64,000 bases of DNA from Candidatus Omnitrophota bacterium (lineage in GTDB: Bacteria > Omnitrophota > Gorgyraeia > Aquiviventales > Aquiviventaceae): positions 6,659 to 70,658 of the forward strand of contig JACPRA010000027.1 of NCBI GenBank assembly GCA_016190215.1, in the 5' to 3' direction. Both the position numbers and the translations under genes were made by a program. Shown in pieces: positions 12,256 to 36,552 of the stretch. A model generated the notes under the pieces. That model was not told the origin of the DNA. It worked only from the letters and a program-made list of their open reading frames with translations, and did no database searches. Within the stretch, counting starts at the first letter, position 1. Each line of letters opens with the position of its first letter.

Positions 12256-12270
12256 CGCCTTTGTTACGAT
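12242..12270 (+). promoter_or_regulatory. Sigma70-type promoter (TTGACA-17 nt-TACGAT) for mreB operon
   Basis: Read directly from the sequence. The -35 lies inside the last codons of aroA. Confidence 0.35.
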
Positions 12271-12291
12271 GCCCGTAGATACCCTCCCGCT

Positions 12292-13371
12292 ATGAGACGC
12301 CTTTTCAACGCGATCCGCCGGTTTTTCAAAGGCCTCACCAACTCTTTTTTTGCCAGCATGTCCAATGATCTCGCCATTGACCTGGGCACGGCCACCACGC
12401 TGGTGTTCGTGAAAGGGCGGGGTATTGTGCTGTGCGAGCCCTCGGTCGTGGCGATCCAGCGTGGGTCCAGCAAGGTACTGGCGGTGGGGGAAGAGGCCAA
12501 GCGGATGATCGGCCGCACGCCTGGCAACATTTCCGCCATCCGCCCCATGAAGGACGGCGTGATCGCGGATTTCGAGGTGACCGAGGCGATGCTGCGGTAC
12601 TTCATCAAGAAGGTGCAGTCGCGCAAACTCAATAAGCCGCTCGTGGTGGTGGCGATCCCCTCCGGCATCACCGAGGTGGAAAAGCGGGCCGTGCGCGATT
12701 CCGCGCTGCGCGCGGGAGCCCGGGAAGTCTACCTCGTGGAAGAGCCCAAGGCGGCGGCCATCGGTGTCGGGCTGCCCATCCATGAGCCGGGCGGCAACAT
12801 GATTATCGATATCGGCGGCGGCACCACCGAAATGGCGGTCATCTCGCTGGACGGTGTCGTGATCTCGAAATCCATACGGATCGCCGGCGATGAGCTGGAT
12901 CAAGCGATCGTCGAGCATCTGCGCAAGACCTTCAACTTGATGATCGGGGAGCGCACGGCCGAGGAAATCAAAATCCGCGTGGGCTCCGCCTATCCGCTGG
13001 AGCAGGAGCTGACGATGGACGTCCGCGGCCGCGACTTGGGCGGCGGGTTGCCCAAAACCGTCACGATCACCTCAGAAGAAATCCGCGAAGCGCTCTCGGA
13101 GCCGGTCCGCATCATCGTCGAGTCGGCCCGGGCGACCCTGGAAAAAACCCCGCCGGAGTTGGCGGCGGACCTCATTGACCGGGGCATCGTGCTCGCCGGC
13201 GGCAGCTCGCAGTTGCGCGGATTGGACCGGCTGCTGGCGGAAGAGACCGGCTTGCCCGTGCACGTGGCCGACAGTCCGGTGACGGCGGTGGCCTTAGGGG
13301 TCGGCAAAGGCCTCGAAGACATCCGGTATCTGCGCAGCAGAATCGCCATCTCCAACGGCTCAGAACTCTAA
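12292..13371 (+). CDS. mreB: Rod shape-determining actin homologue MreB
   Basis: [33 protein letters not shown] and [14 protein letters not shown] motifs. Confidence 0.95.
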
Positions 13372-13416
13372 CACCCCGTCCTTCTGGGGCCTGTCTCGCA
13401 ACCAGGCACCGCATCC

Positions 13417-14166
13417 GTGCGTCGTCTGACAGTCCGCCTGCTTTCTCTCAGCCTTCTCCTTGCGCTTCTCAGCGCAGCTCCTGTTCGCCGTGCCGCCCTC
13501 CACGTGTTCCGGTTCCCCCTTGAAATCGTGCAGGGCGCCATCCGAATCGGCTGGTGGCTGCCCCAGCTGCCGCGCGTGAGCGCCGAGCACGGCGCGCTGC
13601 GGCGGCAGTTGGCCGCCGATCAATTGGAATTGGCTCGCCTGCGGGAAGCGCTCCGTCATGCCTCCGCCACCGCGGCGCTGACGTCCTCCGAGCTGCCGGG
13701 CGCCCTGGTCGGCAGCGTTATGGGGCGGACGCTGCTGCCGACCCAGCAGAGCATCTTGATCAACCGCGGGGAGCGGGACGGGGTCAAGGCCGGCAGCCTC
13801 CTGATGAGCTCCGAGGGGTTGGTGGGCCGGGTGATCGAAACGACTCCCGCGACCAGCCTCGGCCTGCTGGTGACGGATTCCGACAGCCGCGTGGCCGCCT
13901 TGACGGAGCGGACGCGCGAAACCGGATTGCTCGTCGGCATGGCCGGGTCGTGGTGCCAGTTCATCTATGTGGATCCGGAAGCCGATATCGTCGTTGGAGA
14001 TCGCGTCGTGACGGCCGGGCTGGATGGCGCGTTTCCCAAGGGGTTGCCGGTGGGGACCGTGGACCAGGTGGTCCGGCACGGGGGCGGGACGTCGCTCTCC
14101 GTTCGGGTGCGCCCGGCGGCCATGCTGCGCCGGATCGAAGAAGTGCTGATTATTCCGCCAGGATGA
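13417..14166 (+). CDS. mreC: Rod shape-determining protein MreC
   Basis: Position after mreB. N-terminal anchor, coiled segment and C-terminal beta domains (GDRVVTAGLDGAFPKGLPVG). Confidence 0.8.
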   Translation: MRRLTVRLLSLSLLLALLSAAPVRRAALHVFRFPLEIVQGAIRIGWWLPQLPRVSAEHGALRRQLAADQLELARLREALRHASATAALTSSELPGALVGSVMGRTLLPTQQSILINRGERDGVKAGSLLMSSEGLVGRVIETTPATSLGLLVTDSDSRVAALTERTRETGLLVGMAGSWCQFIYVDPEADIVVGDRVVTAGLDGAFPKGLPVGTVDQVVRHGGGTSLSVRVRPAAMLRRIEEVLIIPPG

Positions 14167-14636
14167 GCCGCGTGCTGCTCGTGGGAATGGCGGTCTTCCT
14201 GCAGGTGGCCCTGGGCGGCGTGCTGAGCTCCCCGTGGTGGATGCCGGATGTGGTGCTGATCGTCCTCGCCCTCGTCGCCATGGAGGCCGCCGATCCGCCG
14301 TGGGGCGCCTTGGCGGCGGCGGCGGCCGGGGCCGTCCTCGCCAGCGCGCGGGATTGGCTGCCCGTCGGCGCCGTCTATGCCGCTGCGGGAGCGGTGATCT
14401 GGTGGCTCGCGCACCGGTGGGATTTGGAAGCGGCCTCGCACCGGCTGCTCGTCATGGCCCTCGCGGAGGGCGGGATCCTGGCCTGCTGGCTGGCGGTGGA
14501 GCTGGCCGCCGGGCGCGTGGAAGGGAATCGCCTCGGGGGGTGGATCGCGCTGCTGGGATGGGTCGCTGTCAGAGTGGCGATGACGACCGGCGCGGCCTGG
14601 GGCGTCCTCCGTCTCCGGTCCCGGTTTGCTAGCTGA
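14163..14636 (+). CDS. mreD: Rod shape-determining protein MreD
   Basis: Polytopic hydrophobic protein starting at the ATG at 14163, which overlaps the mreC stop (ATGA). The 13554 track start lies inside mreC in another frame. Confidence 0.65.
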   Translation: MSRVLLVGMAVFLQVALGGVLSSPWWMPDVVLIVLALVAMEAADPPWGALAAAAAGAVLASARDWLPVGAVYAAAGAVIWWLAHRWDLEAASHRLLVMALAEGGILACWLAVELAAGRVEGNRLGGWIALLGWVAVRVAMTTGAAWGVLRLRSRFAS

Positions 14637-14647
14637 GCGCGCGCGGG

Positions 14648-16429
14648 ATGCCCTCTCGTCTGATTTGGTTCCGGCGCGTCCTGGTGGCCGCGTTGGCATG
14701 CCTGGTGTTTCGGCTCGCCGGGCTGCAGTTGTGGGAGGGGGCTCGCTATCGCGCGCTGGCGGAGCGTAACCGGGTGCGGGTGGTGCCGGAGCCGGCCCCG
14801 CGCGGCCGGATCGTGGATCGCCACGGGCGTCTGTTGGCGGCGACGCGGCCGATCTTCCGCGTCGCGGCGATTCCGCAAGAGTTTTCCAGCGAGACGCGAT
14901 GGCGGTGGCGGGAGTCGGCCCAGCGCGCTGGCACGGTGTCCCGGGCCGAGGCCTTCGCCCGCCTGAGTCCCTTCGTGGGCGTGCCCCCCGCAGAGCTGGA
15001 GCAGCGGTTTCGGGCCCAGCGCACCCTCCCCTTTGTTCCCGCCACGATCGTGCCGGAGGTGACCAAGCTGCAGGCGTTGCAGATCGCCGAAGCGCATCTG
15101 GAGCTGCCGGGCATCGTGGTGGAGCCCGTACCCGTCCGCGACTACCCGCTGGGCTCCGCTGCGGCCCATCTCATCGGCTATGTCGGCCAGCCGACGGAGG
15201 AGGCGTTTCCGGTCCTGAAGCAGTACGGGGTGCGCCCCACCGATGCCGTCGGGCGGTCGGGAATCGAGAAAGAATTCGAGGCCTATCTCCGCGGCCGCTC
15301 CGGCGGGTCTGTCATCGAGGTGGATCATCGGGCGCGGCAAGTCCGGTTGCTGGGCCGCCGCGAGGCGGAAGCCGGACAGACTGTCGCGCTGACCGTTGAT
15401 GCGCAGCTCTGCTCGCTGATTGCGCGCCGGTTCGGGGATCAGCCCGGGGCGGCGGTCGTCGTGCAGCCCTCGACGGGAGAAGTGCTGGCCCTGGTGAGCG
15501 TGCCGGATTTTGACCCGGGCCTCTTTGTCCGGCAGGATCGCCGGGAACTGCAGCGCGTCCTCACGGACCCGCAGTCTCCGCTGCTGGATCGCGCGACGAT
15601 GGGACAATACACGCCCGGCTCCATCATCAAGCTGCTGACGGCGGCCATTGCGCTGCAGCAGCATCTCGTCACGCCGGCGACGCCGCTGCCGTGCCTCGGC
15701 TATGTCCAGATCGGCGACCGGCGCTTCCATTGCTGGAATCGCGATGGGCATGGCCCGGTGACGCTGCGCGAGGCCCTCACGGTGTCCTGCAACAGCTATT
15801 TTCTGGAGGTCGGACACCGGCTGGGGCTGGAGCGGCTTCGCGCCGGATTTCAGCGCGCCGGGTTGGGGCGGCGGACCGGCTGGGTCTTGGGCGATCAGCC
15901 CGGGCATCTTCCCCCGCCAAGCCGGCGGCTCACCGAAGGAGAGGCCACGCTGCTGGCCATCGGGCAGGGAGAAATCCTGCTCACGCCGCTGCAGGCGGCC
16001 GTCATGGTCGGCGCCGTCGCCAACGGCGGGTGGCTCATGCGGCCCTGGGTGGTCAAGCAAATCGGCGAGCGCGCGATTGAGCCGTCCGCCGGCGTCTCGC
16101 TGGGGTGGCCGCGCGAGACGTTCGATCGCTTGCGGGAGGGCATGGTGGCGGTGGTGAACGCTCCGCACGGCACCGGCGCGCACGCCCACAGCGATCAGGT
16201 GCGCATTGCGGGGAAAACCGGCACGGCACAAACCCACGTGCCGGGCCGGCCCAACGGCTGGTTCGTGGGATTTTGTCCCGTGGACCATCCGGTGGTGGCG
16301 CTGGCCGTGGTGGCGGAGCACGGCGGCTCCGGAGGCGAGCTGCCCTCGCTGATCGGCAAGGCGGTCTGTGAATACGTGGCGGCCCATCCCGAGGCTGTCT
16401 CGTCGCCCGAGGAGGCCGGCGCGTCATGA
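14648..16429 (+). CDS. mrdA: Penicillin-binding protein 2 (elongasome transpeptidase)
   Basis: SxxK (GSIIKL), SxN (SCNSYF) and KTG (GKTGTAQ) motifs. Located between mreD and rodA. Confidence 0.9.
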   Translation: MPSRLIWFRRVLVAALACLVFRLAGLQLWEGARYRALAERNRVRVVPEPAPRGRIVDRHGRLLAATRPIFRVAAIPQEFSSETRWRWRESAQRAGTVSRAEAFARLSPFVGVPPAELEQRFRAQRTLPFVPATIVPEVTKLQALQIAEAHLELPGIVVEPVPVRDYPLGSAAAHLIGYVGQPTEEAFPVLKQYGVRPTDAVGRSGIEKEFEAYLRGRSGGSVIEVDHRARQVRLLGRREAEAGQTVALTVDAQLCSLIARRFGDQPGAAVVVQPSTGEVLALVSVPDFDPGLFVRQDRRELQRVLTDPQSPLLDRATMGQYTPGSIIKLLTAAIALQQHLVTPATPLPCLGYVQIGDRRFHCWNRDGHGPVTLREALTVSCNSYFLEVGHRLGLERLRAGFQRAGLGRRTGWVLGDQPGHLPPPSRRLTEGEATLLAIGQGEILLTPLQAAVMVGAVANGGWLMRPWVVKQIGERAIEPSAGVSLGWPRETFDRLREGMVAVVNAPHGTGAHAHSDQVRIAGKTGTAQTHVPGRPNGWFVGFCPVDHPVVALAVVAEHGGSGGELPSLIGKAVCEYVAAHPEAVSSPEEAGAS

Positions 16430-17496
16430 GGAAGATACCGTGGGACATGCCGCTGCTGCTGGCCGCGGGGGCGTTGAGCTGCATCAGCCTGATCGCGTTG
16501 GCCTCCGCCGCGGCCACGCTGAATCCGTCCTTGGTCTGGCGGCAGGCCGTGTGGGTGGGAGTGGGGATGGGAGTAGCCTGGCTGATGGCCTCTGTGCCGT
16601 ATCCCAAGTGGCTCGATCTGGCGCCGGTCTGGTACGCGGGCGCGGTGGGGCTGCTGGTCATCGTCTTCATCGCCGGCACCATGAAGCTGGGCGCGACCCG
16701 CTGGCTGACGATCGTGGGATTCAGCCTGCAGCCGTCGGAATGCGCCAAGCTGGCCGTGGCGTTCCTCTTGGCCCGATCACTCGGCCATCGGAGCGCGCCA
16801 TTGTCCTGGCGGGACCTCGCCGGCTCCGCCCTGGTCGCCGGGCTGCCTGCGGTGCTGATTTTTCTCCAGCCGGATTTGGGCTCCAGCTCTATCCTGCTGG
16901 CCATGTGGCTGGGGGTCGTGTGGGTGGCCGGCATCGCGCCGAAGCAACTGCTGCTGTTGGGAATCGCGGCGGCGGCCGTGACGCCGATCGGCTGGCATGC
17001 GCTGAAGGAATTTCAACGCCTGCGCCTGCTGGCGTTCATCAACCCGCATGCGGATCCCCTGGGGGCGGGCTACACCATCATTCAATCGCAGATCGCCATC
17101 GGTTCCGGAGGGTTCTGGGGCCGGGGGTGGCTCTCCGGGACGCAGAGCCAGCTTAATTTCTTGCCCGAGCGCCACGCGGATTTCCTTTTCTCGGTCATCG
17201 GGGAAGAGTGGGGGTGGTGGGGAGCGGTCCTCGTCGTGGCTTGCATCGGATGCGTGATCTGGCGGGCGCTGGCGATCGCCCTGCGCAACTCGGAATCCCA
17301 GGGCCGGTTGCTGGCGGCGGCGCTGGTCTCTTGGCTGGGGTATCAGGCCGTCATCAATATCGCCATGGTCATGGGCATGGTGCCGGTGGTGGGTATTCCG
17401 TTGCCGTTCGTCAGCTACGGGGGGTCGGCCATGGTCATGACGTGGACCGCCGTCGGCCTCTTGCAAAGTATCCACCGCTTTGGGACTCGCTTCTGA
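16426..17496 (+). CDS. rodA: SEDS-family peptidoglycan glycosyltransferase RodA
   Basis: FtsW/RodA/SpoVE family polytopic protein (PERHADFLFSVIGEEWG, GIPLPFVSYGGS). The start overlaps the mrdA stop. Confidence 0.9.
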   Translation: MRKIPWDMPLLLAAGALSCISLIALASAAATLNPSLVWRQAVWVGVGMGVAWLMASVPYPKWLDLAPVWYAGAVGLLVIVFIAGTMKLGATRWLTIVGFSLQPSECAKLAVAFLLARSLGHRSAPLSWRDLAGSALVAGLPAVLIFLQPDLGSSSILLAMWLGVVWVAGIAPKQLLLLGIAAAAVTPIGWHALKEFQRLRLLAFINPHADPLGAGYTIIQSQIAIGSGGFWGRGWLSGTQSQLNFLPERHADFLFSVIGEEWGWWGAVLVVACIGCVIWRALAIALRNSESQGRLLAAALVSWLGYQAVINIAMVMGMVPVVGIPLPFVSYGGSAMVMTWTAVGLLQSIHRFGTRF

Positions 17497-17619: not shown

Positions 17620-17753
17620 GAGACGATCGACGAACGGGCAAACCTCCGCCACACATCGTGGCGGACCCGCCGAGGGTGTAGGGGCGGGCGCCGCAAGGCA
17701 GGGACGCAAAGCTTCTGACCCCGCGCGCGCGGGGTAGCAGGGCTGCCGAATGG
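17620..17753 (+). promoter_or_regulatory. c-di-GMP-I (GEMM-I) riboswitch aptamer
   Basis: Contains the hallmark segments GGGCAAACC (17636-17644), GGGACGCAAAGC (17701-17712) and GGUAGCAGGGCUGCCGAAUGG (17732-17753). For comparison, V. cholerae Vc2 has GGGCAAACC...GGGACGCAAAGCC...GGUAGCGGGGUUACCGAUGG. The first hairpin carries an enlarged branched insert. Confidence 0.65.
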
Positions 17754-17766: not shown

Positions 17767-17799
17767 GCACGCCCTGGCACCAGGGCGTGCAATTTTTTT
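17767..17799 (+). terminator. Intrinsic terminator (riboswitch expression platform)
   Basis: GCACGCCCT-GGCACC-AGGGCGTGC stem-loop followed by AATTTTTTT. It sits just before the SD (GAGGGGGAG) and the ATG at 17816. Confidence 0.8.
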
Positions 17800-17815: not shown

Positions 17816-18073
17816 ATGAACGGACCGCATCTTCGGGCGCACCGGGTCATTGCCTCCTTAAACCGCGAGCAGGTGGACGCCTTGGATAAGGTCGGCAAGG
17901 ATGCCCTCTTTTCCGCCGGGGTGAAGCTCTCCCGCACGCACATCATCTCCGTCTTGGTCAACGTGCTCCAACGGCTCCACGTCAGCGGCAACGGGGTTCG
18001 GACCCCGGACGAGCTGGAGCAGCGGATTCTAGGCCGGGTCACGAAAGGTCGAGGAGGAAAGCCCCATGGCTGA
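17816..18073 (+). CDS. Small protein, possible ribbon-helix-helix fold (function unknown)
   Basis: Strong SD upstream of the ATG at 17816; the track start at 17750 lies inside the riboswitch and terminator. The N-terminus HRVIASLNREQVDALDKV looks like a beta-strand plus helix. The stop overlaps the next gene. Confidence 0.45.
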   Translation: MNGPHLRAHRVIASLNREQVDALDKVGKDALFSAGVKLSRTHIISVLVNVLQRLHVSGNGVRTPDELEQRILGRVTKGRGGKPHG

Positions 18074-19499
18074 AACGCGGGAACCCCGGCGGCTGGGCGT
18101 CGTGCCCCAGGGCATTCGTTTGGACGTGCTGTGCGCGTTTTTGCTGATGTCGGTGGTGCCGCTGGTGGTGTTGCTGCTGGTCGCCGGCTGGTTTGCGTTT
18201 CCAAGCGTTCGGGAGTTCTACCACTTGGAGCAGTGGTTTCCGCTGATCGCGAGCCCCTCGGAGGCCACATGGTGGCTGCTGAGCATCCTGACGCTGACGA
18301 TGGCCATTTCGCTGCTGGGCAGCGCTTACCTGGCCGTGAAGATCATCACGCCGGTCATTCATTTGAGCCATCACGCCAAATCGCTGGCCGCCGGCGATTA
18401 TGACGCGCGAATGACCGATGACGCCCGCACCGGCGAGCTGGGCGATCTCAGCGCCGCCTTGAAGAAGCTGACGTCGCAGATCCGCACGAATATGGTCGAG
18501 CTCAAGCAGCTGGGCGATCGCACCACCCAGATGAACTTTGAGATCAACACGCGCATGGTAATGCTCTCCGGCCTGCTGCAGATCGGCGAGCTGATCGGCG
18601 GTGGGGCGGGGTTGGACATCGTGCTGGACCTGGTGGTGGAGAAGCTGGCCTTGCTGGATCCCCAAGGGTTCAGCTTCCTGTCCTTGCAGCCGGTGGAAGG
18701 CTTGCCCGTGACCTTGCGGCGCAGCCACAACGTGGATCTGGGCCGCCTGACGATCCCGCCGCCGAAGCCGGCCACGGTCACGATCGACGCCGGGCATCGC
18801 CCGAGCGCCGGCCTGGAGCCGCTCTGGAAGCAGTTGGACGGGGCCAATGTGGTGTTACAGCCGGTGTTCGTCCGCGGCAAGCCGGTCGGGATGCTGGGGG
18901 TGGGCAATCGGTATCCGGAGTTCGCTTGGACGCAGGAGTCTGTGGACTTGGCCGGGATCTTCGCGAAGCAGATTTCCATTGCGCTGGAGAACGATTTGCT
19001 GTTGCGCAAGACCAAGCTGCTGGCCATCCATGATGAGCTGACCGGCGCGTATAACGAAACCTATGTCCGGCAGCGGCTGACGGAAGAGCTTAAGCGCGCC
19101 CTCTTGTACCAGCGCCCCTGCGCGCTGGCGATGTTCGCGATCCCCGGCTTGGCGGACTATCGGCGGCGCGCCGGCGAGCCGCAGAGCGAGCAAGTGCTGA
19201 AGCAGGCCGTGCGGATCATCCAGGAATCCGTGACGGACATTGACCGGGTCGGCCGGTTCGGCGGCAACGAGATCGCGGTGCTGCTGCCGGAGCGGAGCAA
19301 GCGCCAGGCCTTGGAGGTGGCGGAGGCCGTGCGCCGGCGCGCCAACGCGTCGTTGGCGGAGCTCGCCGCCGGCGATGCGCTGGCCCTGGTCAGCAGTGTC
19401 GTCGAAAATCCACTGGATGGCGTGACGGCGGATGAGCTGATCACCAAGGCCTCCGCGGCCCTCTCGAAGGCGTCTCCAACACAAGGACACGGCGCATGA
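18066..19499 (+). CDS. Membrane HAMP-GAF-GGDEF protein with degenerate active site (GGNEI)
   Basis: Two TM helices and a HAMP-like segment (PVIHLSHHAKSLAAGDYDARM...GELGDLSAALKKL). C-terminal GGDEF fold (DELTGAYNETYV...RFGGNEIAVLLPE). GGDEF is replaced by GGNEI (19260-19274), and the metal-binding DxD region reads FAIPGL. Confidence 0.75.
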   Translation: MAETREPRRLGVVPQGIRLDVLCAFLLMSVVPLVVLLLVAGWFAFPSVREFYHLEQWFPLIASPSEATWWLLSILTLTMAISLLGSAYLAVKIITPVIHLSHHAKSLAAGDYDARMTDDARTGELGDLSAALKKLTSQIRTNMVELKQLGDRTTQMNFEINTRMVMLSGLLQIGELIGGGAGLDIVLDLVVEKLALLDPQGFSFLSLQPVEGLPVTLRRSHNVDLGRLTIPPPKPATVTIDAGHRPSAGLEPLWKQLDGANVVLQPVFVRGKPVGMLGVGNRYPEFAWTQESVDLAGIFAKQISIALENDLLLRKTKLLAIHDELTGAYNETYVRQRLTEELKRALLYQRPCALAMFAIPGLADYRRRAGEPQSEQVLKQAVRIIQESVTDIDRVGRFGGNEIAVLLPERSKRQALEVAEAVRRRANASLAELAAGDALALVSSVVENPLDGVTADELITKASAALSKASPTQGHGA

Positions 19500-20572
19500 G
19501 CGTTTCCGCCCGACCCACCATGGAACACCTGCTGCGGCTGATGGTGGAGCAGGGGGCCACGGATTTGCATCTGACCGCCAATGCCCCGCCGCACCTGCGG
19601 CTGGACGAACAGCTGGTGGCGACGGACCACGGCGTGCTCAAAGGCGAGGACGTGCGCGAGCTGGCGCACAGCTTGTTGTCGCCCGACAAAGCGGAACGGC
19701 TGGAGCGGTGGAAAGAGCTGGATTTCGCGTTTTCCATCGAGGGGCTGGCGCGGTTCCGCGCCAACTATTTCTTCCAGCAGGGCTATATCGGGGTGGCGAT
19801 CCGCATGCTGCCGTTTCGCATCCAAGGCTTCGAGGAGCTGGGCCTGCCTGCCAAGGTCTTGACGGAGTGGTGCAATAAGCCCAAGGGGCTGGTCCTCATC
19901 ACCGGGTCCACCGGCTCGGGTAAAACCACGACCCTCGCGGCCATGGTGGACTACTTGAACAACACCAAGCCCTACCACATCGTCACCATCGAAGACCCGG
20001 TGGAGTATGTGCATACCGGCAAGCGCGCGATCGTGGACCAGCGGGAAGTCGGCGCGGATACGCAGTCCTTCGCGCAGGCCTTGAAGCACTCGCTCCGCCA
20101 GGATCCGGACGTCATCCTGATCGGAGAGATGCGGGACCTGGAAACCATTGAGACGGCGCTCATCATGGCGGAAACCGGCCATCTGGTCTTGGCGACCCTC
20201 CATACGTCCGACGCCGTGCAGACGGTCAACCGGATCGTGGACGTGTTCCCGTCCCATCAGCAAAACCAGGTGCGCAGCCAGCTGTCGCTGGAGCTGTTGG
20301 GCGTGCTCTCCCAACAGTTGATCCCCAAATCCAGCGGCCGGGGGCGCGTGCTGGCCGTGGAAGTGCTGCTGGCCAATCATGCCGTGCGGTCGCTGGTGCG
20401 GGAGCAGAAAGTCCACCAGCTCTATTCCGTGATCCAGACGGCCCAGAAAGACGGCATGAAGACGATGAACCAGTCCTTATATGAGCTGTATCTCAACCGG
20501 GTCATTACGCTGGAGGAGGCGTTGGCGCGGTCCACGGACCCCGACGACCTCTTGCGGCTGACGAAACGCTGA
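19496..20572 (+). CDS. pilT: Type IV pilus retraction ATPase PilT
   Basis: Walker A GSTGSGKTTTLAAM, the AIRNLIRE-like VRSLVREQK, and a PilT-type length of 358 aa with no N-terminal T2SSE_N domain. Confidence 0.9.
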   Translation: MSVSARPTMEHLLRLMVEQGATDLHLTANAPPHLRLDEQLVATDHGVLKGEDVRELAHSLLSPDKAERLERWKELDFAFSIEGLARFRANYFFQQGYIGVAIRMLPFRIQGFEELGLPAKVLTEWCNKPKGLVLITGSTGSGKTTTLAAMVDYLNNTKPYHIVTIEDPVEYVHTGKRAIVDQREVGADTQSFAQALKHSLRQDPDVILIGEMRDLETIETALIMAETGHLVLATLHTSDAVQTVNRIVDVFPSHQQNQVRSQLSLELLGVLSQQLIPKSSGRGRVLAVEVLLANHAVRSLVREQKVHQLYSVIQTAQKDGMKTMNQSLYELYLNRVITLEEALARSTDPDDLLRLTKR

Positions 20573-20600: not shown

Positions 20601-21095
20601 ATGGCCAAGCGCATCATCACAAAGCGGATCGGCGACATCCTGCTGGAGCGGGGAATCGTCAACCGCCAGGAGCTGGAGCAGGCCTTGGCGCAGCAAAAGG
20701 AGCGCGGGGGCCTGTTGGGCCAAGTGCTGGTGGAGATGGGGGCGGTCACGGAAGAGGAGGTCGCCCTGGCGCTGACGGCCCAGTACGGTTTTCCCTATCT
20801 GCCGCTGGAGAGCTATGAGATTGACGACGCGATTGCCCGCTTGGTGCCGGAACAGGTGGCCCGGCAATACGTGCTGATTCCGATTGATCAGATCGGGAAT
20901 GCCTTGTCCGTGGCCATGGCGGATCCCTCCAACCTCCAGGCCGTGGAAGACATCGAGCTGCTCACCAGCTGTATCGTGCAGACGTTTGTCAGCACGCCCT
21001 CGGACATCCGCAAGGCGATCGGCCGCTGCTATCCCTCCGCGTCCGCCGGTCCCGCGCCGGCGTCCGGGCCCTCACCCAGCGAGCCGCGGCCATGA
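20601..21095 (+). CDS. Stand-alone T2SSE_N/MshEN domain protein (predicted c-di-GMP receptor)
   Basis: Residues 9-61 give two 24-residue MshEN motifs separated by a 5-residue spacer: RIGDILLERGIVNRQELEQALAQQ-KERGG-LLGQVLVEMGAVTEEEVALALTAQ. No ATPase domain; the protein ends in a Pro/Ser-rich tail. Confidence 0.75.
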   Translation: MAKRIITKRIGDILLERGIVNRQELEQALAQQKERGGLLGQVLVEMGAVTEEEVALALTAQYGFPYLPLESYEIDDAIARLVPEQVARQYVLIPIDQIGNALSVAMADPSNLQAVEDIELLTSCIVQTFVSTPSDIRKAIGRCYPSASAGPAPASGPSPSEPRP

Positions 21096-22843
21096 TGAGC
21101 TTCAAGGACCGCATGATGGAGGCCCTCGTGGGGAACCACGTGTTGACGCGCGAGCAGATCGAAGCCGCCCTGAAATTTCAACAGACCAGCGGCGGCAGCC
21201 TGCAGAAGGTGCTGGTCGAGCGCGGGTTCATCACGGAGAGCGCCTTGCTCTCCGCCATCAGCCAGGGGCTGGGCATCCCGCAGATTCGGCTGGCGCGCAT
21301 GAAGATCGACCCGACGCTCAAAACGCTGCTTTCCAGGGAAATCGCCAAGCAGTACCAGCTGATCCCGATCGCCTGCATGGGGCAGACCCTGACGGTGGCG
21401 ATGGCCGATCCGCTGAACATTTTTGCGCTCGATACCTTGACGACCATGACGGGCTTGTCCATCAATCCGCTCCTGGCGACCGCCGGGGACATCCAGGAAG
21501 CCATTGACGTGTACTACGGCACCGGGGTCGAGGAAACATTGCGGCAGATGGTCCGGGAGACGCGGCCCGTCGCGCCGGACCGCGCGCCGGCTCGTCCGCC
21601 CCGCCCGGAGGAGCCGCCGAAGAAATCCGCCCGGCCGGCGGGCTTGACCCAAGAGCCTCCCGTCGTGCGGATGACCGATATGCTGTTGGCGAAGGCGGTG
21701 CAGCTGCGCGCGTCGGATTTATTGATCGAGCCGCTGGAGCATGCCTTCCGCGTGCGCTATCGCGTGGACGGCGTGCTGCAGGAAGGCGAGGCGCCGCCCC
21801 GGCAGTTCCAGCAGGCCGTGGTCTCCCGGATCAAGATCCTGGCGGAATTGAACATTGCCGAGCGCCGCCTGCCGCAGGATGGTCATTTCAACGCGCTCAT
21901 GGACGGCCGCCCGGTGGACTTCCGCGTGTCCGTGCTGCCCGCGACGTTCGGAGAGCGGGTGGTGCTGCGGATTTTGGATAAGCGGCAGGTCAAGCTGGAT
22001 CTGAGGACCCTCGGATTCCACCCGGATGATTTGAGCATGCTGCAGCGTCTGGCTCAGCAGCCGCACGGGTTGGTGCTGTGCACCGGGCCCACCGGCTCGG
22101 GCAAAACCACGACCTTGTATTCCCTGCTGACGACGGTGGATCGCCCCGAGAAAAACCTCGTCACGGTGGAGGACCCCGTCGAATTCCAGTTGGAAGGCGT
22201 CAACCAGGTCACGGCCCGCGCCGACATCGGCTTGACGTTCGCCGCGGCGCTGCGGTCCATCCTCCGCCAGGATCCGGATGTCATCATGGTGGGAGAGATC
22301 CGTGACGCCGAAACCGCGGACATGGCCGTCAAGGCCGCCTTGACCGGGCACTTGGTGCTCAGCACCCTCCACACGAACAGCGCCGCCGGCACCGTCGTGC
22401 GGCTGGTCAATATGGGCGTGGAGCCCTTCCTGCTGAACTCGTCGCTCCTGGCGGTTATTGGGCAGCGGCTTGTCCGGCGCATCTGCTCTTCGTGCCAGAA
22501 GGCCTATCGTCCGCCGGAGGCCCTTGCCAAAAAATTCGGCCTGGTGGATGCCCGCGGGCGCGTCGTGGAGCTGGTCAAGGGGGAAGGCTGCGGGGCGTGC
22601 TTTCAATCCGGCTACCGGGGGCGGGAGGTGATCGCGGAGGTGCTGACGATCGTGCCCCCGATGCGCGAGCTGATCCTGCACCGTCCCCAGGAGCGCGAGC
22701 TGGAAGAGAGCGCCCGCCAGTCCGGCATGCGGACCTTGCGCGAGCACGGCCTGCAGAAAGCGATCGCGCACCTGACGTCGTTGGATGAGGTCATCCGCAC
22801 CACGGTCGGCGAATCGGTGGAGCTGGGGAGTGCCGCGCCATGA
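21092..22843 (+). CDS. pilB: Type IV pilus/T2SS assembly ATPase (PilB/GspE family), copy 1
   Basis: T2SSE_N domain, Walker A CTGPTGSGKTTTLYS, Asp/His boxes, and a tetracysteine motif (CSSC...CGAC). Confidence 0.9.
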   Translation: MMSFKDRMMEALVGNHVLTREQIEAALKFQQTSGGSLQKVLVERGFITESALLSAISQGLGIPQIRLARMKIDPTLKTLLSREIAKQYQLIPIACMGQTLTVAMADPLNIFALDTLTTMTGLSINPLLATAGDIQEAIDVYYGTGVEETLRQMVRETRPVAPDRAPARPPRPEEPPKKSARPAGLTQEPPVVRMTDMLLAKAVQLRASDLLIEPLEHAFRVRYRVDGVLQEGEAPPRQFQQAVVSRIKILAELNIAERRLPQDGHFNALMDGRPVDFRVSVLPATFGERVVLRILDKRQVKLDLRTLGFHPDDLSMLQRLAQQPHGLVLCTGPTGSGKTTTLYSLLTTVDRPEKNLVTVEDPVEFQLEGVNQVTARADIGLTFAAALRSILRQDPDVIMVGEIRDAETADMAVKAALTGHLVLSTLHTNSAAGTVVRLVNMGVEPFLLNSSLLAVIGQRLVRRICSSCQKAYRPPEALAKKFGLVDARGRVVELVKGEGCGACFQSGYRGREVIAEVLTIVPPMRELILHRPQERELEESARQSGMRTLREHGLQKAIAHLTSLDEVIRTTVGESVELGSAAP

Positions 22844-24558
22844 GCAGCATGCAAACCCGTCTCGTTGACGTCTTGATTGCCAAGGGATTGGCCAGCCGGG
22901 AACAGCTGGTTGCGCTCCAAACCGAGGCGCGCAGCGGCAAGCGGTTCGGACAGCTGCTGATTCAGCAGGGCATCCTGACCGCGGAGACGCTCGTCGGGCT
23001 GCTCTCGCAGGAGCTGGGGGTGCCCAGCTTATCGCTGTCCAAATATCGGTTGGATCCGAAAGTGGCGGGGTTGATTCCGGAGCGGGTGGCCCGCCAATAC
23101 ACGATGATCCCGATTTCCCAGTTCGGCCAGCGGCTCGTGGTGGCCATGGCCGACCCGGTGGACTTGTTCGCCCTGGAAGACGTGAAAGCCCTCACGCACT
23201 ATGCGGTGGATCCCGTGCTGGCCAAGGCCTCGGAAATCGAGCAGGCCATCGAGCAGAGCTATGGCGGCATGCGGGCCAGTTTTCCATCAACGCCTCCGGC
23301 GGCGGACGCCGGCGGGGGCGAGGACAAGGACGGCGGCGCCCTCCAGAGCGGGGAATTGGAGAGCGCGGTCCAGCTCCTCCTGGCCGAGGATGCCAGCGAC
23401 GCCCCGGCCGTCAAGGTGATCAACCTGATGCTGCTCGAGGCCCTGCGCCAGCGGGCCTCCGACATCCACCTCGAGCCGGCGTCCGACGCCGTGCGCGTGC
23501 GCTACCGGGTTGATGGGCGCCTGGCGGAAGCCCACCGGTTGCCGAAGCGGGCGCAAAGCACGGTGCTCACCCGCCTAAAAATCATGGCGGGGCTGGACAT
23601 TACCGAATCGCGCTTGCCGCAGGATGGGCGGTTTAAAGTCCGGCTGGATGTGCGGGAGGTGGATTTCCGCGTCTCGGTGCTGCCGGTGGTGCACGGCAAC
23701 AAAATCGTCTTGCGCGCGCTGGATAAGAGCAGCCTCGCCGCGGGGTTGGAGCAATTAGGGTTTTCCCCGCGATCGGTCGCCCCCCTCAAAGACGCCGTGG
23801 CGCGGCCCCACGGCATGATCTTGGTGACCGGACCCACCGGCTCCGGCAAATCCACGACGCTGTATTCCATGCTGCAGCAGCTCAACCTGCCCACGCGCAA
23901 CATCATCACCATCGAGGACCCGGTGGAGTATCAGCTCAACGGCGCCACCCAGGTCCAGGACAACCCGGAGATCGGGCTGACCTTCGCGTCCGGGTTGCGG
24001 TCCATCCTGCGGCAGAATCCCGACATCGTGATGATCGGGGAAATCCGCGACTTTGAAACCGCCGACATCGCCATGAAGGCCAGCCTGACCGGCCACCTGG
24101 TGTTGTCCACCCTGCATACCAACGACGCGCCCTCGTCCGTGACCCGGTTGGTGGACATGGGGGTGGAGCCCTTCCTCATCGCCTCCAGCCTCACCGTGAT
24201 CGAGGCGCAGCGGCTGGTGCGCAAGCTCTGCGCGAAGTGCCGGCAGCCCATCGAGCCGCCCCGGGCGCTCCTGGAACAGTTGGCGTTCAGCCCGCCGCCG
24301 GGGAGCGCGTTCTACCGCGCCGTCGGCTGCCCCAGCTGCAACGGGATGGGCTACCGCGGGCGGATGGGGCTGATCGAGGTCTGCCCGGTGGATGAAGGGT
24401 TGCGCGAGCGGATCGTCTCCCAGGCCCACGCCGGGGAGTTGAAAGCGTATGCGCGCGCCCACCTGGGCATGGTGACGTTGCAGGAGGATGGGATCGCCAA
24501 AGCCGCCGCCGGCTTGACGACGCTGGAAGAAATCCTGCAGGCGACGTCGGAGCTGTGA
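22840..24558 (+). CDS. pilB: Type IV pilus/T2SS assembly ATPase (PilB/GspE family), copy 2
   Basis: T2SSE_N domain with a good second MshEN-like half (RFGQLLIQQGILTAETLVGLLSQ), Walker A VTGPTGSGKSTTLYS, and tetracysteine (CAKC...CPSC). Confidence 0.9.
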   Translation: MSSMQTRLVDVLIAKGLASREQLVALQTEARSGKRFGQLLIQQGILTAETLVGLLSQELGVPSLSLSKYRLDPKVAGLIPERVARQYTMIPISQFGQRLVVAMADPVDLFALEDVKALTHYAVDPVLAKASEIEQAIEQSYGGMRASFPSTPPAADAGGGEDKDGGALQSGELESAVQLLLAEDASDAPAVKVINLMLLEALRQRASDIHLEPASDAVRVRYRVDGRLAEAHRLPKRAQSTVLTRLKIMAGLDITESRLPQDGRFKVRLDVREVDFRVSVLPVVHGNKIVLRALDKSSLAAGLEQLGFSPRSVAPLKDAVARPHGMILVTGPTGSGKSTTLYSMLQQLNLPTRNIITIEDPVEYQLNGATQVQDNPEIGLTFASGLRSILRQNPDIVMIGEIRDFETADIAMKASLTGHLVLSTLHTNDAPSSVTRLVDMGVEPFLIASSLTVIEAQRLVRKLCAKCRQPIEPPRALLEQLAFSPPPGSAFYRAVGCPSCNGMGYRGRMGLIEVCPVDEGLRERIVSQAHAGELKAYARAHLGMVTLQEDGIAKAAAGLTTLEEILQATSEL

Positions 24559-24568: not shown

Positions 24569-25777
24569 ATGCCGACCTTTGCGTACGTCGTCAAAGACAA
24601 AGCGGGCCGGACGCACAACGGCATGCTGGAGACCCCCTCCCGCCAATCCCTTATCGAGTTGTTGTGGAAGCAGGATTTCGTCGTGCTTTCGATCGAAGAG
24701 CGGCAGGCCGCCCGGCGGATGGCGGCGTGGTCCGCCCCCCGCGTGCCCGCGCAGCACCTCGTCATCTTTGCGAGGCAGTTGGCCACCATGGTGGCCAGCG
24801 GCATCCCCATCCTCGGCGCGCTGGACATCCTGCAATCGCAACTGGAGGACCGGGGGTTCCGCCAGGTGCTCAAGCAGATCCAGCGCGATGTCGAAAGCGG
24901 CAGCAGCCTGTCGGAGAGCCTGGCCAAGTATCCGCGCATTTTCTCCGATCTCTTTGTCAACATGATCAAGGCCGGCGAGTCCTCCGGCCGCCTGGATGAA
25001 ATCCTCGACCGGCTCGCCGGCTATATCGAGAAAACCGACGGGCTGCGCCGGAAGGTCAGCACGAGCATGTTTTACCCGATCCTGGTGTCGGTCCTGGCCG
25101 CGGGGATCACCGGGTTTCTGGTCATCGTCGTGGTGCCGAAATTCCGCGAAATTTTCACCTCCCTCGGCGGGCAGTTGCCGCTGCCCACCCAGTTGCTGTT
25201 GAACGCCAGCGATTACCTGCGCCGGTATTTCCTGGCCTATGTGGCCGTGGGCGTCCTGGCGGTGTTTGCGGGGCGCGCGCTCCTCGGCACGAAGCCGGGC
25301 CGGTTGTGGTTTGATCGGATGAAGCTCAAGTTTCCGGTGTTCGGGCCGTTGCTGCAAAAGGTGGCGATCGCCCGCTTCGCCCGTACGTTGGCGACGCTGG
25401 TGCGCTCCGGCGTGCCCATCCTGGCGGCGTTGGAGATCGTGGCCAGGACCGCCGGCAATGCGGCCATTGAGCGGGCGGTCATGAAGGCGCGGACCAGCAT
25501 TCGCGAGGGGGTGAACATCGCCGATCCGCTGACCCAAAGCGGCATGTTTCCCCCTATGGTGACGCGGATGATCGCCGTGGGGGAGAAGACCGGCGAACTG
25601 GAAAAAATGCTCTCCAAGATCGCGGAATTTTATGAGAGCGAAGTGGATGCCATGGTCTCCGCGCTGACGAGCCTGATTGAGCCGATCGTCATCGCCGTCC
25701 TGGGGGTGATCATCGGCGGGATCGTGGTCGCGCTGTTCCTGCCGATTTTCAAGATCTCGCAACTGGTCACCGGATAA
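24569..25777 (+). CDS. pilC: Type IV pilus platform protein PilC (GspF family)
   Basis: Duplicated GspF domains and three TM segments. Located after the pilB genes. Confidence 0.9.
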   Translation: MPTFAYVVKDKAGRTHNGMLETPSRQSLIELLWKQDFVVLSIEERQAARRMAAWSAPRVPAQHLVIFARQLATMVASGIPILGALDILQSQLEDRGFRQVLKQIQRDVESGSSLSESLAKYPRIFSDLFVNMIKAGESSGRLDEILDRLAGYIEKTDGLRRKVSTSMFYPILVSVLAAGITGFLVIVVVPKFREIFTSLGGQLPLPTQLLLNASDYLRRYFLAYVAVGVLAVFAGRALLGTKPGRLWFDRMKLKFPVFGPLLQKVAIARFARTLATLVRSGVPILAALEIVARTAGNAAIERAVMKARTSIREGVNIADPLTQSGMFPPMVTRMIAVGEKTGELEKMLSKIAEFYESEVDAMVSALTSLIEPIVIAVLGVIIGGIVVALFLPIFKISQLVTG

Positions 25778-25791: not shown

Positions 25792-25821
25792 TTGACGTTT
25801 CTTTGGCGATGTATGTATAGT
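25792..25821 (+). promoter_or_regulatory. Sigma70-type promoter (TTGACG-18 nt-TATAGT) for the pilin gene
   Basis: Read directly from the sequence. It lies about 80 nt upstream of the pilin ATG. Confidence 0.45.
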
Positions 25822-27777: not shown

Positions 27778-28815
27778 ATGCCTGCGTCATCGTCCTCTCT
27801 CCTTCAGTCGGGCTGGAGCCTGCTCTCCCGGTTGGCGACCGTGTCGCCGAAAGAGCCCAAGCTCACCATCGGGCTCGACGTGGGGACCTCGTCCATCAAG
27901 ACTGTGGCGCTCGGCCAGCGCCGCCTGGGCCCGCGGCCGGTGCTGGGGCAGCACGTGCTGGAGCTGGGATCCGGCAGCGAGGTGCATCTACCGCAGGCCA
28001 TCCAGCGGGCGGTGGCGGCGCTGCGGGTGCCGACGAAAGCGGTCAGCGTGTCGGTCAGCGGCCAGTGGGTGATCATGCGGGTGATCGAGATGCCGGTGAT
28101 GAAGCCGGACGAGCTGGCCCTGGCGCTCCCCATTGAGGCGCAGCGTTACGTGCCGTTTCGGATTGAAGAGGTGATCGTCGACGGCACCATCCTCGGCCCG
28201 GCCGACGGCAACAAGATCTGGGTGGTGTTGGTCGCCTGCAAACGGGACCTGGTGGAGCGCCGGGTCGGGTGGGTCCGCCAGGCCGGCCTGGAGCCGGTGG
28301 TGGTGGATGTGGATGCCCTGGCCGTGGCGAACGCCGTGTGCGCCGGCGCCGACAACGGGTCCTCGACGGCAACCCGGGCCGTCATCAACGTCGGCACGCA
28401 GTGGACCAACCTGGCGGTCATCAAGAGCGGCAATCCGTATTTGATCCGCGACATTCCCTGGGGCATCGAAAAGCTCAGCCGCCGCGTGGCTGAGCAAACC
28501 GGCCTGGAAGAGCGTGCCGTCATCGGGCATCTGAAGCAATCCGAGGCCGTGCCGCCTGCGGTGCAGGAAGCCGTGGCGATCATGTGCGAGTCGCTTACCA
28601 CGGAACTGCAGCTCTCCTTTGATTTCTTCGAAAACCACTTCGGCCCGCCGCCTCAGCAACTGTTGGTGACCGGCGGGGCGGGCCAGTCCGCCTCGTTCCT
28701 GGAGGCGCTCAAGCGCCATGTGTCGCTGCCGATCGTGCCGTGGACGCCGGCGGCCGGGCTCGGGGGGCAGTTCACCGTGGCCTACGGGCTGGCGTTGCGC
28801 GGAGGCGCGGCATGA
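27778..28815 (+). CDS. pilM: Type IV pilus assembly protein PilM (actin-like ATPase fold)
   Basis: IGLDVGTSSIKTVAL phosphate-1 motif. Followed by pilNOPQ. Confidence 0.85.
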   Translation: MPASSSSLLQSGWSLLSRLATVSPKEPKLTIGLDVGTSSIKTVALGQRRLGPRPVLGQHVLELGSGSEVHLPQAIQRAVAALRVPTKAVSVSVSGQWVIMRVIEMPVMKPDELALALPIEAQRYVPFRIEEVIVDGTILGPADGNKIWVVLVACKRDLVERRVGWVRQAGLEPVVVDVDALAVANAVCAGADNGSSTATRAVINVGTQWTNLAVIKSGNPYLIRDIPWGIEKLSRRVAEQTGLEERAVIGHLKQSEAVPPAVQEAVAIMCESLTTELQLSFDFFENHFGPPPQQLLVTGGAGQSASFLEALKRHVSLPIVPWTPAAGLGGQFTVAYGLALRGGAA

Positions 28816-29429
28816 GCGCGCGCCTCGTAGCTGTCAACCTCCTGCCGGAGGGGCAGCGCAAACCCGTCACAAGTTCGCTTGAGCAGTTTCATCGGTCGCC
28901 GCTGGCGTGGTTGATCGGGGGCGGGCTGGTCGGGGTGGCGTTGGTGTTGTTCGTCATGTTGCGCGTCTATCAAGCCCAGACGGCGCAGGTGGCCGCGCAG
29001 CTGCAAACCCTGGACCAGCAGAAGCTGGTCGTGTTTCAGTTGAAGGACTCCCTGCAGGCCCTGCGCGCGCAGCAGCAGGCGTACCAGCAGGTCCAGCAGG
29101 ATCGCAGCGATTGGGCCCACCACCTCAACACGATTTCCGATCAGGTGCCGGATGGGGTGTGGTTCAGCGATTTGACGCTGGATCCGGTCCGCGGGTTGGT
29201 GATTGAGGGCTCGGCGATCAGCGAGGGCGGGGAAGAGATGGTGCGGATCGGCCGGTTCGTCCAGGAGTTGAAAGCCGATCCCCGGTTCGCGCAGTCCATC
29301 CAGGACATTCAAATTGAAGCGATCAAGCGCGGACAAGAAGGCGACATCGAGCTGGTGTTTTTCACCATTACCTGCACGCTGGCTCCGCCGCGCGCGGCCG
29401 CGGCGGCCTCCGCGACAGGCGGCGCGTGA
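28812..29429 (+). CDS. pilN: Type IV pilus assembly protein PilN
   Basis: The ATG at 28812 overlaps the pilM stop (ATGA). N-terminal VNLLPE motif, one TM helix and a coiled coil. Confidence 0.8.
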   Translation: MSARLVAVNLLPEGQRKPVTSSLEQFHRSPLAWLIGGGLVGVALVLFVMLRVYQAQTAQVAAQLQTLDQQKLVVFQLKDSLQALRAQQQAYQQVQQDRSDWAHHLNTISDQVPDGVWFSDLTLDPVRGLVIEGSAISEGGEEMVRIGRFVQELKADPRFAQSIQDIQIEAIKRGQEGDIELVFFTITCTLAPPRAAAAASATGGA

Positions 29430-30055
29430 CGATGGCGGAGAAGCCGTCTCGGCGGGTGGTGGCGGGCCTGGCGATTCTTGCGGCCCTCATTGCGTGGGTG
29501 TATTATGCCTATGTGGTGCAGCCGATGGCGCAGGGCATCACGCGGCTGCGGGAGGAATTGCGGCGCGCCCGCATTCAAGCCAGCGCGATCGAGCAAGCGA
29601 TCGCGCATGTGCCGGAACTGCAGCAGGAGCAGGCCGCGCTGGCCGACGACGTGGCCCGGCTGCGCGGCGCGTTGCCGAGCGAGCGTGAGCTGGCCTCGGT
29701 GATCCAGTTCATTTCCGATCTAGCCAGCCAGACGAACGTGAAAATCCAATCGGTCTTTCCTCAGCGCTCGTCCGACGAGGAGGCGGCCTCGGGTCGCCCC
29801 AGCCCCGCGTCGTCCGTAGGGCTGCTGTACCAGGAGATTCCCATCCAAATTGACGCGGTCGCCGGGTTTCACCAATTCGGCAGCTTCCTGAGCCGGGCGG
29901 AGCATGGTCCGCACGTGCTGCGGGTCCGCAGCCTCCGCATCAGCGGCAATCCCCGCGAGCCCCGCCGGCAGACGATCAAGCTCGTCATGATGACCTATGT
30001 GACGCCGGGCGCGCCGGTCGGCGCGGCAGCGCCTGAACCGCGCGCGGTGCCGTGA
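29426..30055 (+). CDS. pilO: Type IV pilus assembly protein PilO
   Basis: TM helix, coiled coil and a ferredoxin-like periplasmic domain. Overlaps the pilN stop. Confidence 0.8.
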   Translation: MTMAEKPSRRVVAGLAILAALIAWVYYAYVVQPMAQGITRLREELRRARIQASAIEQAIAHVPELQQEQAALADDVARLRGALPSERELASVIQFISDLASQTNVKIQSVFPQRSSDEEAASGRPSPASSVGLLYQEIPIQIDAVAGFHQFGSFLSRAEHGPHVLRVRSLRISGNPREPRRQTIKLVMMTYVTPGAPVGAAAPEPRAVP

Positions 30056-30062
30056 TCCGGCC

Positions 30063-36446: not shown

Positions 36447-36518
36447 GGGCCGGTAGCTCAGTGGTAGAGCAGGAGACTCATAATCTCTTGGTCGGACGTT
36501 CGATCCGTCCCCGGCCCA
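36447..36518 (+). tRNA. tRNA with CAT anticodon (elongator type; resembles tRNA-Ile2/lysidine class more than initiator)
   Basis: Hand-folded cloverleaf. Acceptor GGGCCGG/CCGGCCC, anticodon loop CTCATAA, T-loop TTCGATC. G1-C72 pairing and no GGG/CCC anticodon stem argue against an initiator. No encoded CCA. Confidence 0.85.
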
Positions 36519-36552
36519 TGTTGTTTCGAGGCAAGGGACGGACGGTAAGCTT

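Follow-up and report, generated by a model that had tools for sequence, protein, structure and literature searches.

A stand-alone MshEN domain protein, a predicted c-di-GMP receptor, encoded beside two pilB genes in the type IVa pilus locus of Omnitrophota

We analyzed a 64-kb stretch of DNA from a Candidatus Omnitrophota bacterium (assembly GCA_016190215.1, contig JACPRA010000027.1, positions 6,659 to 70,658 of the forward strand), hereafter called the window. It contains a small gene that encodes a protein made of a single MshEN domain, the N-terminal domain of GspE/PilB-type ATPases, with a motif for binding of cyclic di-guanosine monophosphate (c-di-GMP). The genes around it form a complete type IVa pilus locus. 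The features on which the argument turns are the following (window coordinates, or residues of the stand-alone protein).

20601..21095, + strand: stand-alone MshEN gene with an ATG start, 164 amino acids, a complete MshEN domain only
20625..20783, + strand: 53-residue c-di-GMP-binding motif, residues 9-61, two 24-residue repeats plus the spacer KERGG
About residues 9-62: MshEN_N four-helix bundle
About residues 63-145: MshEN_C alpha/beta subdomain
Residues 149-164: disordered Pro/Ser/Ala tail
21092..22843, + strand: PilB1, an extension ATPase whose ATPase motifs are intact and whose MshEN motif is degenerate
22840..24558, + strand: PilB2, the second extension ATPase, with intact ATPase motifs and a degenerate motif I

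A Shine-Dalgarno-like GGAG is located 6 nt 5' of the stand-alone open reading frame (ORF). Its TGA stop (21093-21095) overlaps the ATG of pilB1 (21092-21094) within the tetranucleotide ATGA (21092-21095), the coupling of stop and start already described in the initial annotation, which had been made from the sequence alone. That annotation also held that the product is a GspE/PilB N-terminal domain and nothing else. The search with hidden Markov models (HMMs) agrees: residues 62-148 match PF05157 (MshEN) with 76 bits (Pfam, cut-off 23), residues 9-61 match NF053729 'c-di-GMP_motif', a 53-residue NCBIfam model, with 62.4 bits (cut-off 38), and the protein has no T2SSE ATPase domain, with no match to PF00437 in Pfam. 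The PilB model TIGR02538 gives 77.6 bits for a cut-off of 675 and is covered at profile positions 2-138 only. Judged by its sequence, the protein is thus not a PilB, despite the label 'PilB' given by JGI to several orthologues. Its predicted fold and its motif make it a member of the MshEN domain family, with predicted ligand binding.

The motif was scored at 11 positions against the published 24-residue pattern RLGxx(L/V/I)(L/V/I)xxG(L/V/I)(L/V/I)xxxxLxxxLxxQ in a six-frame scan of the 64 kb. Motif I of the stand-alone protein, RIGDILLERGIVNRQELEQALAQQ, matches at 10 of the 11 positions and is the single best match of the whole window. Motif II, LLGQVLVEMGAVTEEEVALALTAQ, matches at 8/11, and the two are separated by the five residues KERGG. 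The best MshEN motif of the window, present twice with a 5-residue spacer, is therefore indeed where it had been placed. Only three segments reach at least 8/11, namely these two motifs and motif II of PilB2 (9/11). The glycines at position 3 (G11 and G40) and the glutamines at position 24 (Q32 and Q61) are all four present in the stand-alone protein. R9 is also present, and Leu occupies the position of R38. The first pilB copy had been said to have lost the motif glycines. This is true of both position-3 glycines (replaced by Met and Gln) and of position 10 of motif I (His), but PilB1 has kept the position-10 glycine of motif II. In PilB2, only the position-3 glycine of motif I is lost (Val). 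On NF053729, PilB1 nevertheless reaches 43.1 bits (cut-off 38), so that the HMM alone would wrongly call it a binder. This is a lesson for annotation: matches to a 'c-di-GMP motif' HMM can pass cut-offs without the critical glycines.

The significance of these residues is known from MshE of Vibrio cholerae. In MshE, the guanines are held by hydrogen bonds from the backbone amides at the position-3 glycine of each repeat, both terminal glutamines contact the ribose and phosphate of the ligand only, and the arginine at position 1 of each motif (R9, R38) stacks on guanine (PMC5013675). The G11L variant does not bind and G40I binds 72-fold more weakly (PMC5013675). Changes to Arg9 cost less than 5-fold, according to earlier work cited in the same article (PMC5013675). 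We counted the glycines and glutamines in orthologue alignments of 85 stand-alone, 76 PilB1 and 69 PilB2 sequences.

Stand-alone protein: position-3 glycine kept in 85/85 sequences for motif I and 84/85 for motif II; position-24 glutamine kept in 83/85 and 84/85, respectively
PilB1: position-3 glycine absent from both motifs in all sequences (0/76 each); position-24 glutamine kept in 68/76 for motif I and replaced by Gly in 59/76 for motif II
PilB2: position-3 glycine kept in 0/69 sequences for motif I and 21/69 for motif II; position-24 glutamine kept in 31/69 and 9/69, respectively

The same contrast between kept and lost contact residues is seen in a second Omnitrophota clade and in a fused protein, P0124, both described below. 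The freezing of ligand-only residues in the stand-alone family, while they drift in paralogues of the same fold, is the strongest computational argument for c-di-GMP binding.

The structure of the protein was predicted with AlphaFold from an alignment of 69 sequences over two clades (predicted local distance difference test, pLDDT, 85.7; predicted template modeling score, pTM, 0.73). It replaces a model from a narrow alignment of 30 sequences (pLDDT 66), in which the C-subdomain was wrongly helical. Helices 10-16, 22-35, 39-45 and 51-62 form a four-helix bundle (residues 10-62), strands 92-98, 101-106 and 125-130 a three-stranded alpha/beta subdomain, and the tail is disordered from residue 149. 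The model is that of the two-subdomain MshEN fold. Its best solved match by Foldseek is c-di-GMP-bound MshE (5HTL), with a TM score of 0.85, a root-mean-square deviation of 2.1 A over 138 columns and an E value of 7.6e-12. It is followed by the GSPII-A and GSPII-B domains of PilF, by the N-domain of X. citri PilB complexed with PilZ, and by the N-domain of XpsE. Sequence matches to PilF, Geobacter PilB and MshE range from E 1e-17 to 1e-52.

We then considered how widely this gene occurs and whether it is a gene at all. In a scan of one genome per GTDB species, 142 loci encode a relative; 80 were fetched, and these are labeled Omnitrophota or, loosely, 'Planctomycetales/Planctomycetia', 'uncultured bacterium' or 'bacterium'. 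The 120 best homologues in the database range from 149 to 182 residues in length, with identities of 63-100%. The gene is a separate ORF with its own stop in the window, in 83 loci and in L084-L086, and is fused only in P0124 of locus L087. The order of stand-alone gene, pilB1, pilB2 and pilC is kept wherever the contig is long enough (the 83 loci and three more). The location between pilT and two pilB genes, as first annotated, holds for the window. Across the relatives covered by the synteny survey, the usual 5' neighbors are rodA, the gene of a GGDEF protein and pilT, and the constant neighbor is pilB1, directly downstream, and not pilT. In several lineages, the GGDEF gene and the stand-alone gene have no pilT between them. 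The spacer is 6 residues long in a second stand-alone clade, which also has another context, cinA-ligT-stand-alone gene-pilB-pilB-pilC-pilS-pilR; its named members are all Omnitrophica. An exhaustive profile search for stand-alone MshEN proteins of about 145-180 residues returned many clusters at the 50%-identity level. The names obtained for the distant ones are all Omnitrophota, apart from a partial GspE of Wallbacteria, probably a fragment. Mean identity to the window proteins is 62% for the stand-alone protein, 70% for PilT, 60% for PilC, 57% for PilB1 and 55% for PilB2. The ratio of nonsynonymous to synonymous substitution rates (dN/dS) is 0.08-0.24 for the folded part of the stand-alone protein, similar to PilT and mostly below PilB1, PilB2 and PilC. 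These comparisons show a stand-alone MshEN family that is conserved, and under purifying selection as judged from dN/dS, throughout Omnitrophota.

The only fused form found, P0124 (765 residues), is encoded at 6001-8298 of L087, a 50-kb metagenome contig. A domain resembling the stand-alone protein is joined there to a PilB1-like ATPase through a low-complexity linker of about 45 residues, and PilB2 and PilC then follow. Its motif I is intact, and its motif II keeps the position-3 glycine but has an insertion. A search with its N-domain gave two weak stand-alone matches only and no close relatives; the fused form is rare or poorly sampled. The existence of this protein, together with the ATGA overlap in the window, where a single-base indel could fuse or split the two frames, is what could be invoked to see in the stand-alone gene the remnant of a disrupted pilB, or an artefact of annotation or assembly. 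We regard this explanation as extremely unlikely. The split form is found in at least 80 species, in two clades and with varied intergenic distances, and its dN/dS is low. The downstream PilB1 is full length with an N-domain of its own. The stand-alone protein is only 36% identical to the N-domain of its own PilB1 and 32% to that of PilB2, against 40% to that of Geobacter PilB, which points to an old paralogue and not to a recent break. A pseudogene or pilB fragment is thus ruled out by conservation, selection, homologue lengths and low identity to the PilBs of the same locus. The initial annotation had named a full-length fused orthologue in close relatives as evidence that would speak for a fragment, and the only fused orthologue is one distant sequence. 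As the split form is the one that is conserved and under selection, this fusion does not overturn the reading of a genuine stand-alone gene.

Other architectures were seen in the course of this survey. P0127, P0150 and P0164 (204-215 residues) lack an ATPase, are related to the stand-alone family and have the layout (MshEN_N)2-MshEN_C. In P0132 (723 residues), an MshEN domain resembling the stand-alone protein precedes a PilZ-like motif (RRAPR...NDLSATG), after which comes a long C-terminal region; it could combine two different c-di-GMP receptor modules in one protein.

The other genes of the locus are as follows.

12292-17496: mreB-mreC-mreD-pbp2-rodA, cell-shape cluster
17816..18073, + strand: first gene of the operon, conserved, 85 amino acids, with the ribosome-binding site (RBS) GAGGGGGAG upstream
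18066..19499, + strand: membrane HAMP-GAF protein with a degenerate GGDEF domain (GGNEI)
19496..20572, + strand: PilT retraction ATPase (TIGR01420, 477 bits for a cut-off of 319)
24569..25777, + strand: PilC platform protein (Pfam), last gene of the motor operon
27778-31909: pilM, pilN, pilO, a pilP-like gene and pilQ

No coding-strand terminator-like site lies between the genes from the 85-residue ORF to pilC, and several of these genes overlap, which is why we read them as one operon. Three pilin-like genes come after pilC, and a sigma-70-like promoter-like site (25792-25821) precedes the pilin gene at 25900. The stop of the 85-residue ORF overlaps the start of the next gene. This ORF is present in 26 related loci (tblastn) with the signature HRVIASLNREQVD..LDKIGKDA.FS.G.KLSRT. 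It has no Pfam match, and its pattern gives the impression of a ribbon-helix-helix protein. Many of the Omnitrophota loci that we inspected, L001 and L003 among them, have the mreB-mreC-mreD-pbp2-rodA cluster immediately 5' of the pilus cluster. The tandem of full-length PilB1 and PilB2 (21092-24558) is conserved phylum-wide, and Walker A, Walker B and the Asp-box are kept in both. The His box of PilB2 mostly reads TGQ instead of TGH, with RQDPD changed to RQSPD or RQNPD. The two ATPases might form a mixed motor or divide the labor between them. Further downstream, genes for tRNA-Met, for tRNA-Val and for an RNase P RNA of bacterial class A (169 bits) were located in the window at 36447-36627 and 37986-38369.

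The GGDEF protein encoded upstream of pilT was an evident candidate for a local source of the messenger. Its active site reads GGNEI in the window and is degenerate in 51/55 orthologues, being canonical in 4/55, and it lacks the RxxD inhibitory site; we therefore reject it as a dedicated local cyclase. This HAMP-GAF-GGDEF protein is probably a sensor or a scaffold rather than a cyclase. An HMM built from GGDEF domains matched only this syntenic neighbor in the window and in the related loci. Another GGDEF, EAL or HD-GYP gene was found neither in the window nor in the flanks of the relatives, and motif searches over the window gave no c-di-GMP enzyme or receptor besides the MshEN motif.

The leader of the operon provides a link between the locus and c-di-GMP that is independent of the MshEN motif and had escaped the initial annotation. 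It contains the following two elements.

17627..17750, + strand: c-di-GMP-I riboswitch aptamer RF01051 (42.9 bits for a gathering score of 35, Rfam covariance model)
17767..17799, + strand: intrinsic terminator, expression platform, with a 10-bp GC-rich stem (17767-17790) plus a T-run

Promoter-like sites are found before the aptamer, and the terminator, a strong one, comes directly after it, followed by the RBS of the first operon gene. RF01051 occurs at the same position of the operon leader in L003, L004, L006, L008, L012, L014, L017 and L019. In six relatives, a second c-di-GMP-I riboswitch is located after pilC and before the pilin genes.

L003: pilin-leader riboswitch at 13886-14046
L006: pilin-leader riboswitch at 12490-12619
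L012: pilin-leader riboswitch at 12200-12361
L017: pilin-leader riboswitch at 12263-12422
L065: pilin-leader riboswitch at 12764-12852
L069: pilin-leader riboswitch at 12136-12224

The orthologous operon leaders score 35-62.5 bits on RF01051 and the pilin-leader copies 42.5-73.5 bits. A terminator accompanies the pilin-leader riboswitch in all three that were folded (L003, L006 and L012). The pilin leader of the window itself has no riboswitch in the Rfam search, even at E values up to 1. The operon leader of L012 (5446-5528) is best matched by the variant c-di-GMP-I-GGC, RF03167 (61.9 bits for a threshold of 59), and its ligand specificity may be different. The presence of RF01051 riboswitches indicates that c-di-GMP, or a close analogue, controls this locus in these organisms. 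Upon folding, the terminator lies wholly 3' of the aptamer and its left arm can pair with aptamer sequences. This modeled layout hints at an OFF switch, by which c-di-GMP would repress the locus.

Taken with the pattern of the contact residues, these data make it likely, in our opinion, that the stand-alone protein binds c-di-GMP. We further propose, with somewhat less assurance, that it may well serve in trans as a c-di-GMP-sensing subunit of the PilB1/PilB2 motor that extends the type IVa pilus. The N-terminal four-helix bundle would bind one c-di-GMP via the two 24-residue repeats, as in MshE and PilF GSPII-B, and the C-terminal alpha/beta subdomain, of the T2SSE_N1 type, would dock the sensor onto the motor. 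Subdomains of this type bind GspL in type II secretion and PilZ in Xanthomonas, and are thought to face PilM in pilus systems. The likeliest docking partner would be PilB1, or else the PilM/PilC platform; PilB1 is put forward because of the constant adjacency to pilB1 and of the one fused homologue, P0124, which is supportive only. Occupancy by c-di-GMP would then alter the engagement or activity of the PilB1 and PilB2 ATPases, whose own MshEN domains can presumably no longer bind. The system would be in effect a PilF-like multi-MshEN ATPase with its ligand-competent MshEN supplied in trans, while transcription of the operon would be under the same messenger through the c-di-GMP-I riboswitch. 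By analogy with MshE and PilF, c-di-GMP may activate the motor. The initial annotation had also envisaged an action on PilT. We found no link to PilT, whose gene is absent from the neighborhood in several lineages.

Several points weigh against this proposal. The first arginine of motif I varies within the stand-alone family (Q in 38, R in 25, K in 9, P in 6 and L in 4 sequences), and motif II begins with Leu and not Arg (Leu in 81/85). Neither the window nor about 1 Mb of flanking DNA of relatives yielded an active diguanylate cyclase, and some riboswitches of this general class sense 3'3'-cyclic GMP-AMP (cGAMP). P0124 is a single contig sequence without close relatives and may be an indel artefact. 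Both the direction of regulation and the identity of the docking partner, be it PilB1, PilB2, PilM or PilC, are inferred. Finally, the GSPII-A domain of Thermus PilF is near-consensus yet does not bind, even when the full consensus is restored (PMC12002112), so that conservation of the motif is suggestive but is not proof. The pocket of GSPII-A is blocked by a capped extra helical turn and by contacts between the subdomains (PMC12002112).

The case of GSPII-A raises the alternative that the Gly, Leu and Gln positions of the stand-alone family are kept for the fold or for protein-protein contacts. That GSPII-A ranks near the top of the solved structures in sequence and fold comparisons, that the C-terminal subdomain of the family is even more conserved than the motif region, and that the first arginine is variable would all be in keeping with it. 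However, both ligand-only glutamines and both position-3 glycines are near-invariant in the stand-alone proteins but vary freely in PilB1 and PilB2, proteins of the same fold. In GSPII-A, His and Arg replace the two glutamines, and the initial Arg and Gly of motif II have become Ser and Ala. The stand-alone protein has none of the His/Arg and Ala deviations, with Gln and Gly at these positions, and its motif II begins with LLG, as does that of the binding-competent GSPII-B domain. The helix-capping position is occupied by Arg4, and not by a residue of the Ser, Thr or Asp type that blocks the pocket of GSPII-A; the basic N-terminus is like that of MshE. Considering also the c-di-GMP riboswitches of the same locus, we find conservation for fold or contacts alone an improbable explanation.

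The direction of the riboswitch brings in another possibility, namely that the free domain is a c-di-GMP-dependent decoy or brake. It would compete with PilB1 and PilB2 for docking on PilM/PilC, or cap the ATPase, and pilus extension would be blocked at high c-di-GMP. A terminator-type, OFF-like riboswitch fits a brake better than activation, since repression of the locus and a brake at the protein level would go in the same direction, and the protein has the N1-type subdomain known elsewhere to bind GspL and PilZ. On the other hand, translational coupling and co-transcription with pilB1 suit a stoichiometric subunit better than an independently dosed inhibitor, and a covalently fused form exists. 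Moreover, the known c-di-GMP-binding MshEN domains of pilus ATPases act positively, and the OFF reading comes from folding only. We therefore consider a brake unlikely, though of the alternatives discussed here it is the one to keep most in mind. It is very doubtful that the protein receives c-di-GMP for an output other than the pilus motor, such as exopolysaccharide or the cell envelope, its location in the pil locus being incidental. MshEN domains do couple to many outputs, M. xanthus PilB signals to exopolysaccharide production, and the pil cluster is conserved beside mreBCD-pbp2-rodA; but the only constant neighbors of the gene are pilB1, pilB2 and pilC, in two different wider contexts, and the fusion of P0124 is to PilB1. 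More speculatively, and with little probability in our view, the free MshEN could be an exchangeable, c-di-GMP-loaded 'selector' that chooses the engaged motor by docking on either PilB or on PilM/PilC. If this were true, the sensor would be shared among ATPase hexamers instead of being built into each, and the riboswitch would alongside set the expression of the operon from the same messenger.

The proposed sensor subunit can be compared with several known systems. It shares with MshE (5HTL, PMC5013675) the two-subdomain fold, the 24-residue motif in two copies five residues apart, the key Gly and Gln positions and a basic N-terminus. In MshE, however, the domain is fused to its T2SSE ATPase, whereas here it is a separate 164-residue protein beside ATPases with degenerate copies. 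Thermus thermophilus PilF, with its (MshEN/GSPII)3-T2SSE layout, and the multi-MshEN ATPases of Clostridia and Nitrospirota also have extra MshEN domains, with binding and non-binding copies together. The fused P0124 shows a (MshEN)2-T2SSE layout of the same kind, and it is through this protein that we equate the present system with the multi-MshEN ATPases of Thermus, Clostridia and Nitrospirota. Those are single polypeptides, unlike the two ATPase paralogues and separate domain found here. The arrangement is also the reverse of that of PilF, where GSPII-B and GSPII-C are binders and GSPII-A, on the outside, is not. In the present system, the separate domain, outermost in P0124, is the predicted competent copy, and the ATPase-adjacent domain is degenerate.

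MshEN proteins without a T2SSE ATPase have been described before, as with P. aeruginosa PA3740 and Cyanothece cce_1044, which we compared by their descriptions. PA3740 is treated as experimentally tested, among predicted c-di-GMP binders (PMC5013675, Supplementary Tables 3-4). By its description it has a highly divergent C-subdomain, whereas this subdomain is canonical here (76 bits on PF05157), and cce_1044 consists of two N-subdomains only, unlike the stand-alone protein. In the accessible part of PMC5013675, neither is described as a conserved member of a pilB operon, and the many MshEN architectures given there by Wang et al. include no plain stand-alone MshEN in a pil operon. Likewise, a search by terms in a 2024 review on the cofactors of PilB, which deals with PilZ, FimX, CpiA and phage peptides, gave no free MshEN protein (PMC11656802). 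Our literature search returned nothing on a stand-alone MshEN in a pil operon, nor on pili and c-di-GMP in Omnitrophota. The arrangement had at first been considered uncharacterized, and this holds in that we found no paper on it, but ATPase-less MshEN proteins as such were already known.

A precedent for outsourced sensing is given by Xanthomonas and Pseudomonas, where the PilB N-domains lack the motif and the c-di-GMP information comes via FimX and PilZ (PMC8389850). There, as proposed here, a motif-less PilB N-domain is engaged by a separate sensing protein. The two systems are functional analogues and are not homologous: the FimX sensor is a degenerate EAL domain acting through the PilZ adaptor, whereas here the sensor would be a paralogue of the PilB N-domain. 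A c-di-GMP riboswitch in a pilus-gene leader is also known from C. difficile, where a c-di-GMP-II riboswitch is located upstream of pilA1, as mentioned in the 2024 review (PMC11656802). In contrast, the riboswitch described here is of the GEMM-I class, is on the motor operon (and on pilin genes in some relatives), and appears OFF-like rather than ON.

How MshEN/GSPII domains couple c-di-GMP to extension ATPases is poorly understood according to that review, partly from the flexibility of the domain, which is badly resolved in full-length structures (PMC11656802). With the ligand-competent domain present as a separate 16-kDa protein beside ligand-blind copies in the ATPases, as predicted here, this question would become easier to test. 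For the Omnitrophota, a large and mostly uncultured phylum of very small cells, these findings provide a concrete c-di-GMP circuit, made of riboswitches and a predicted protein receptor and centered on the type IV pilus.

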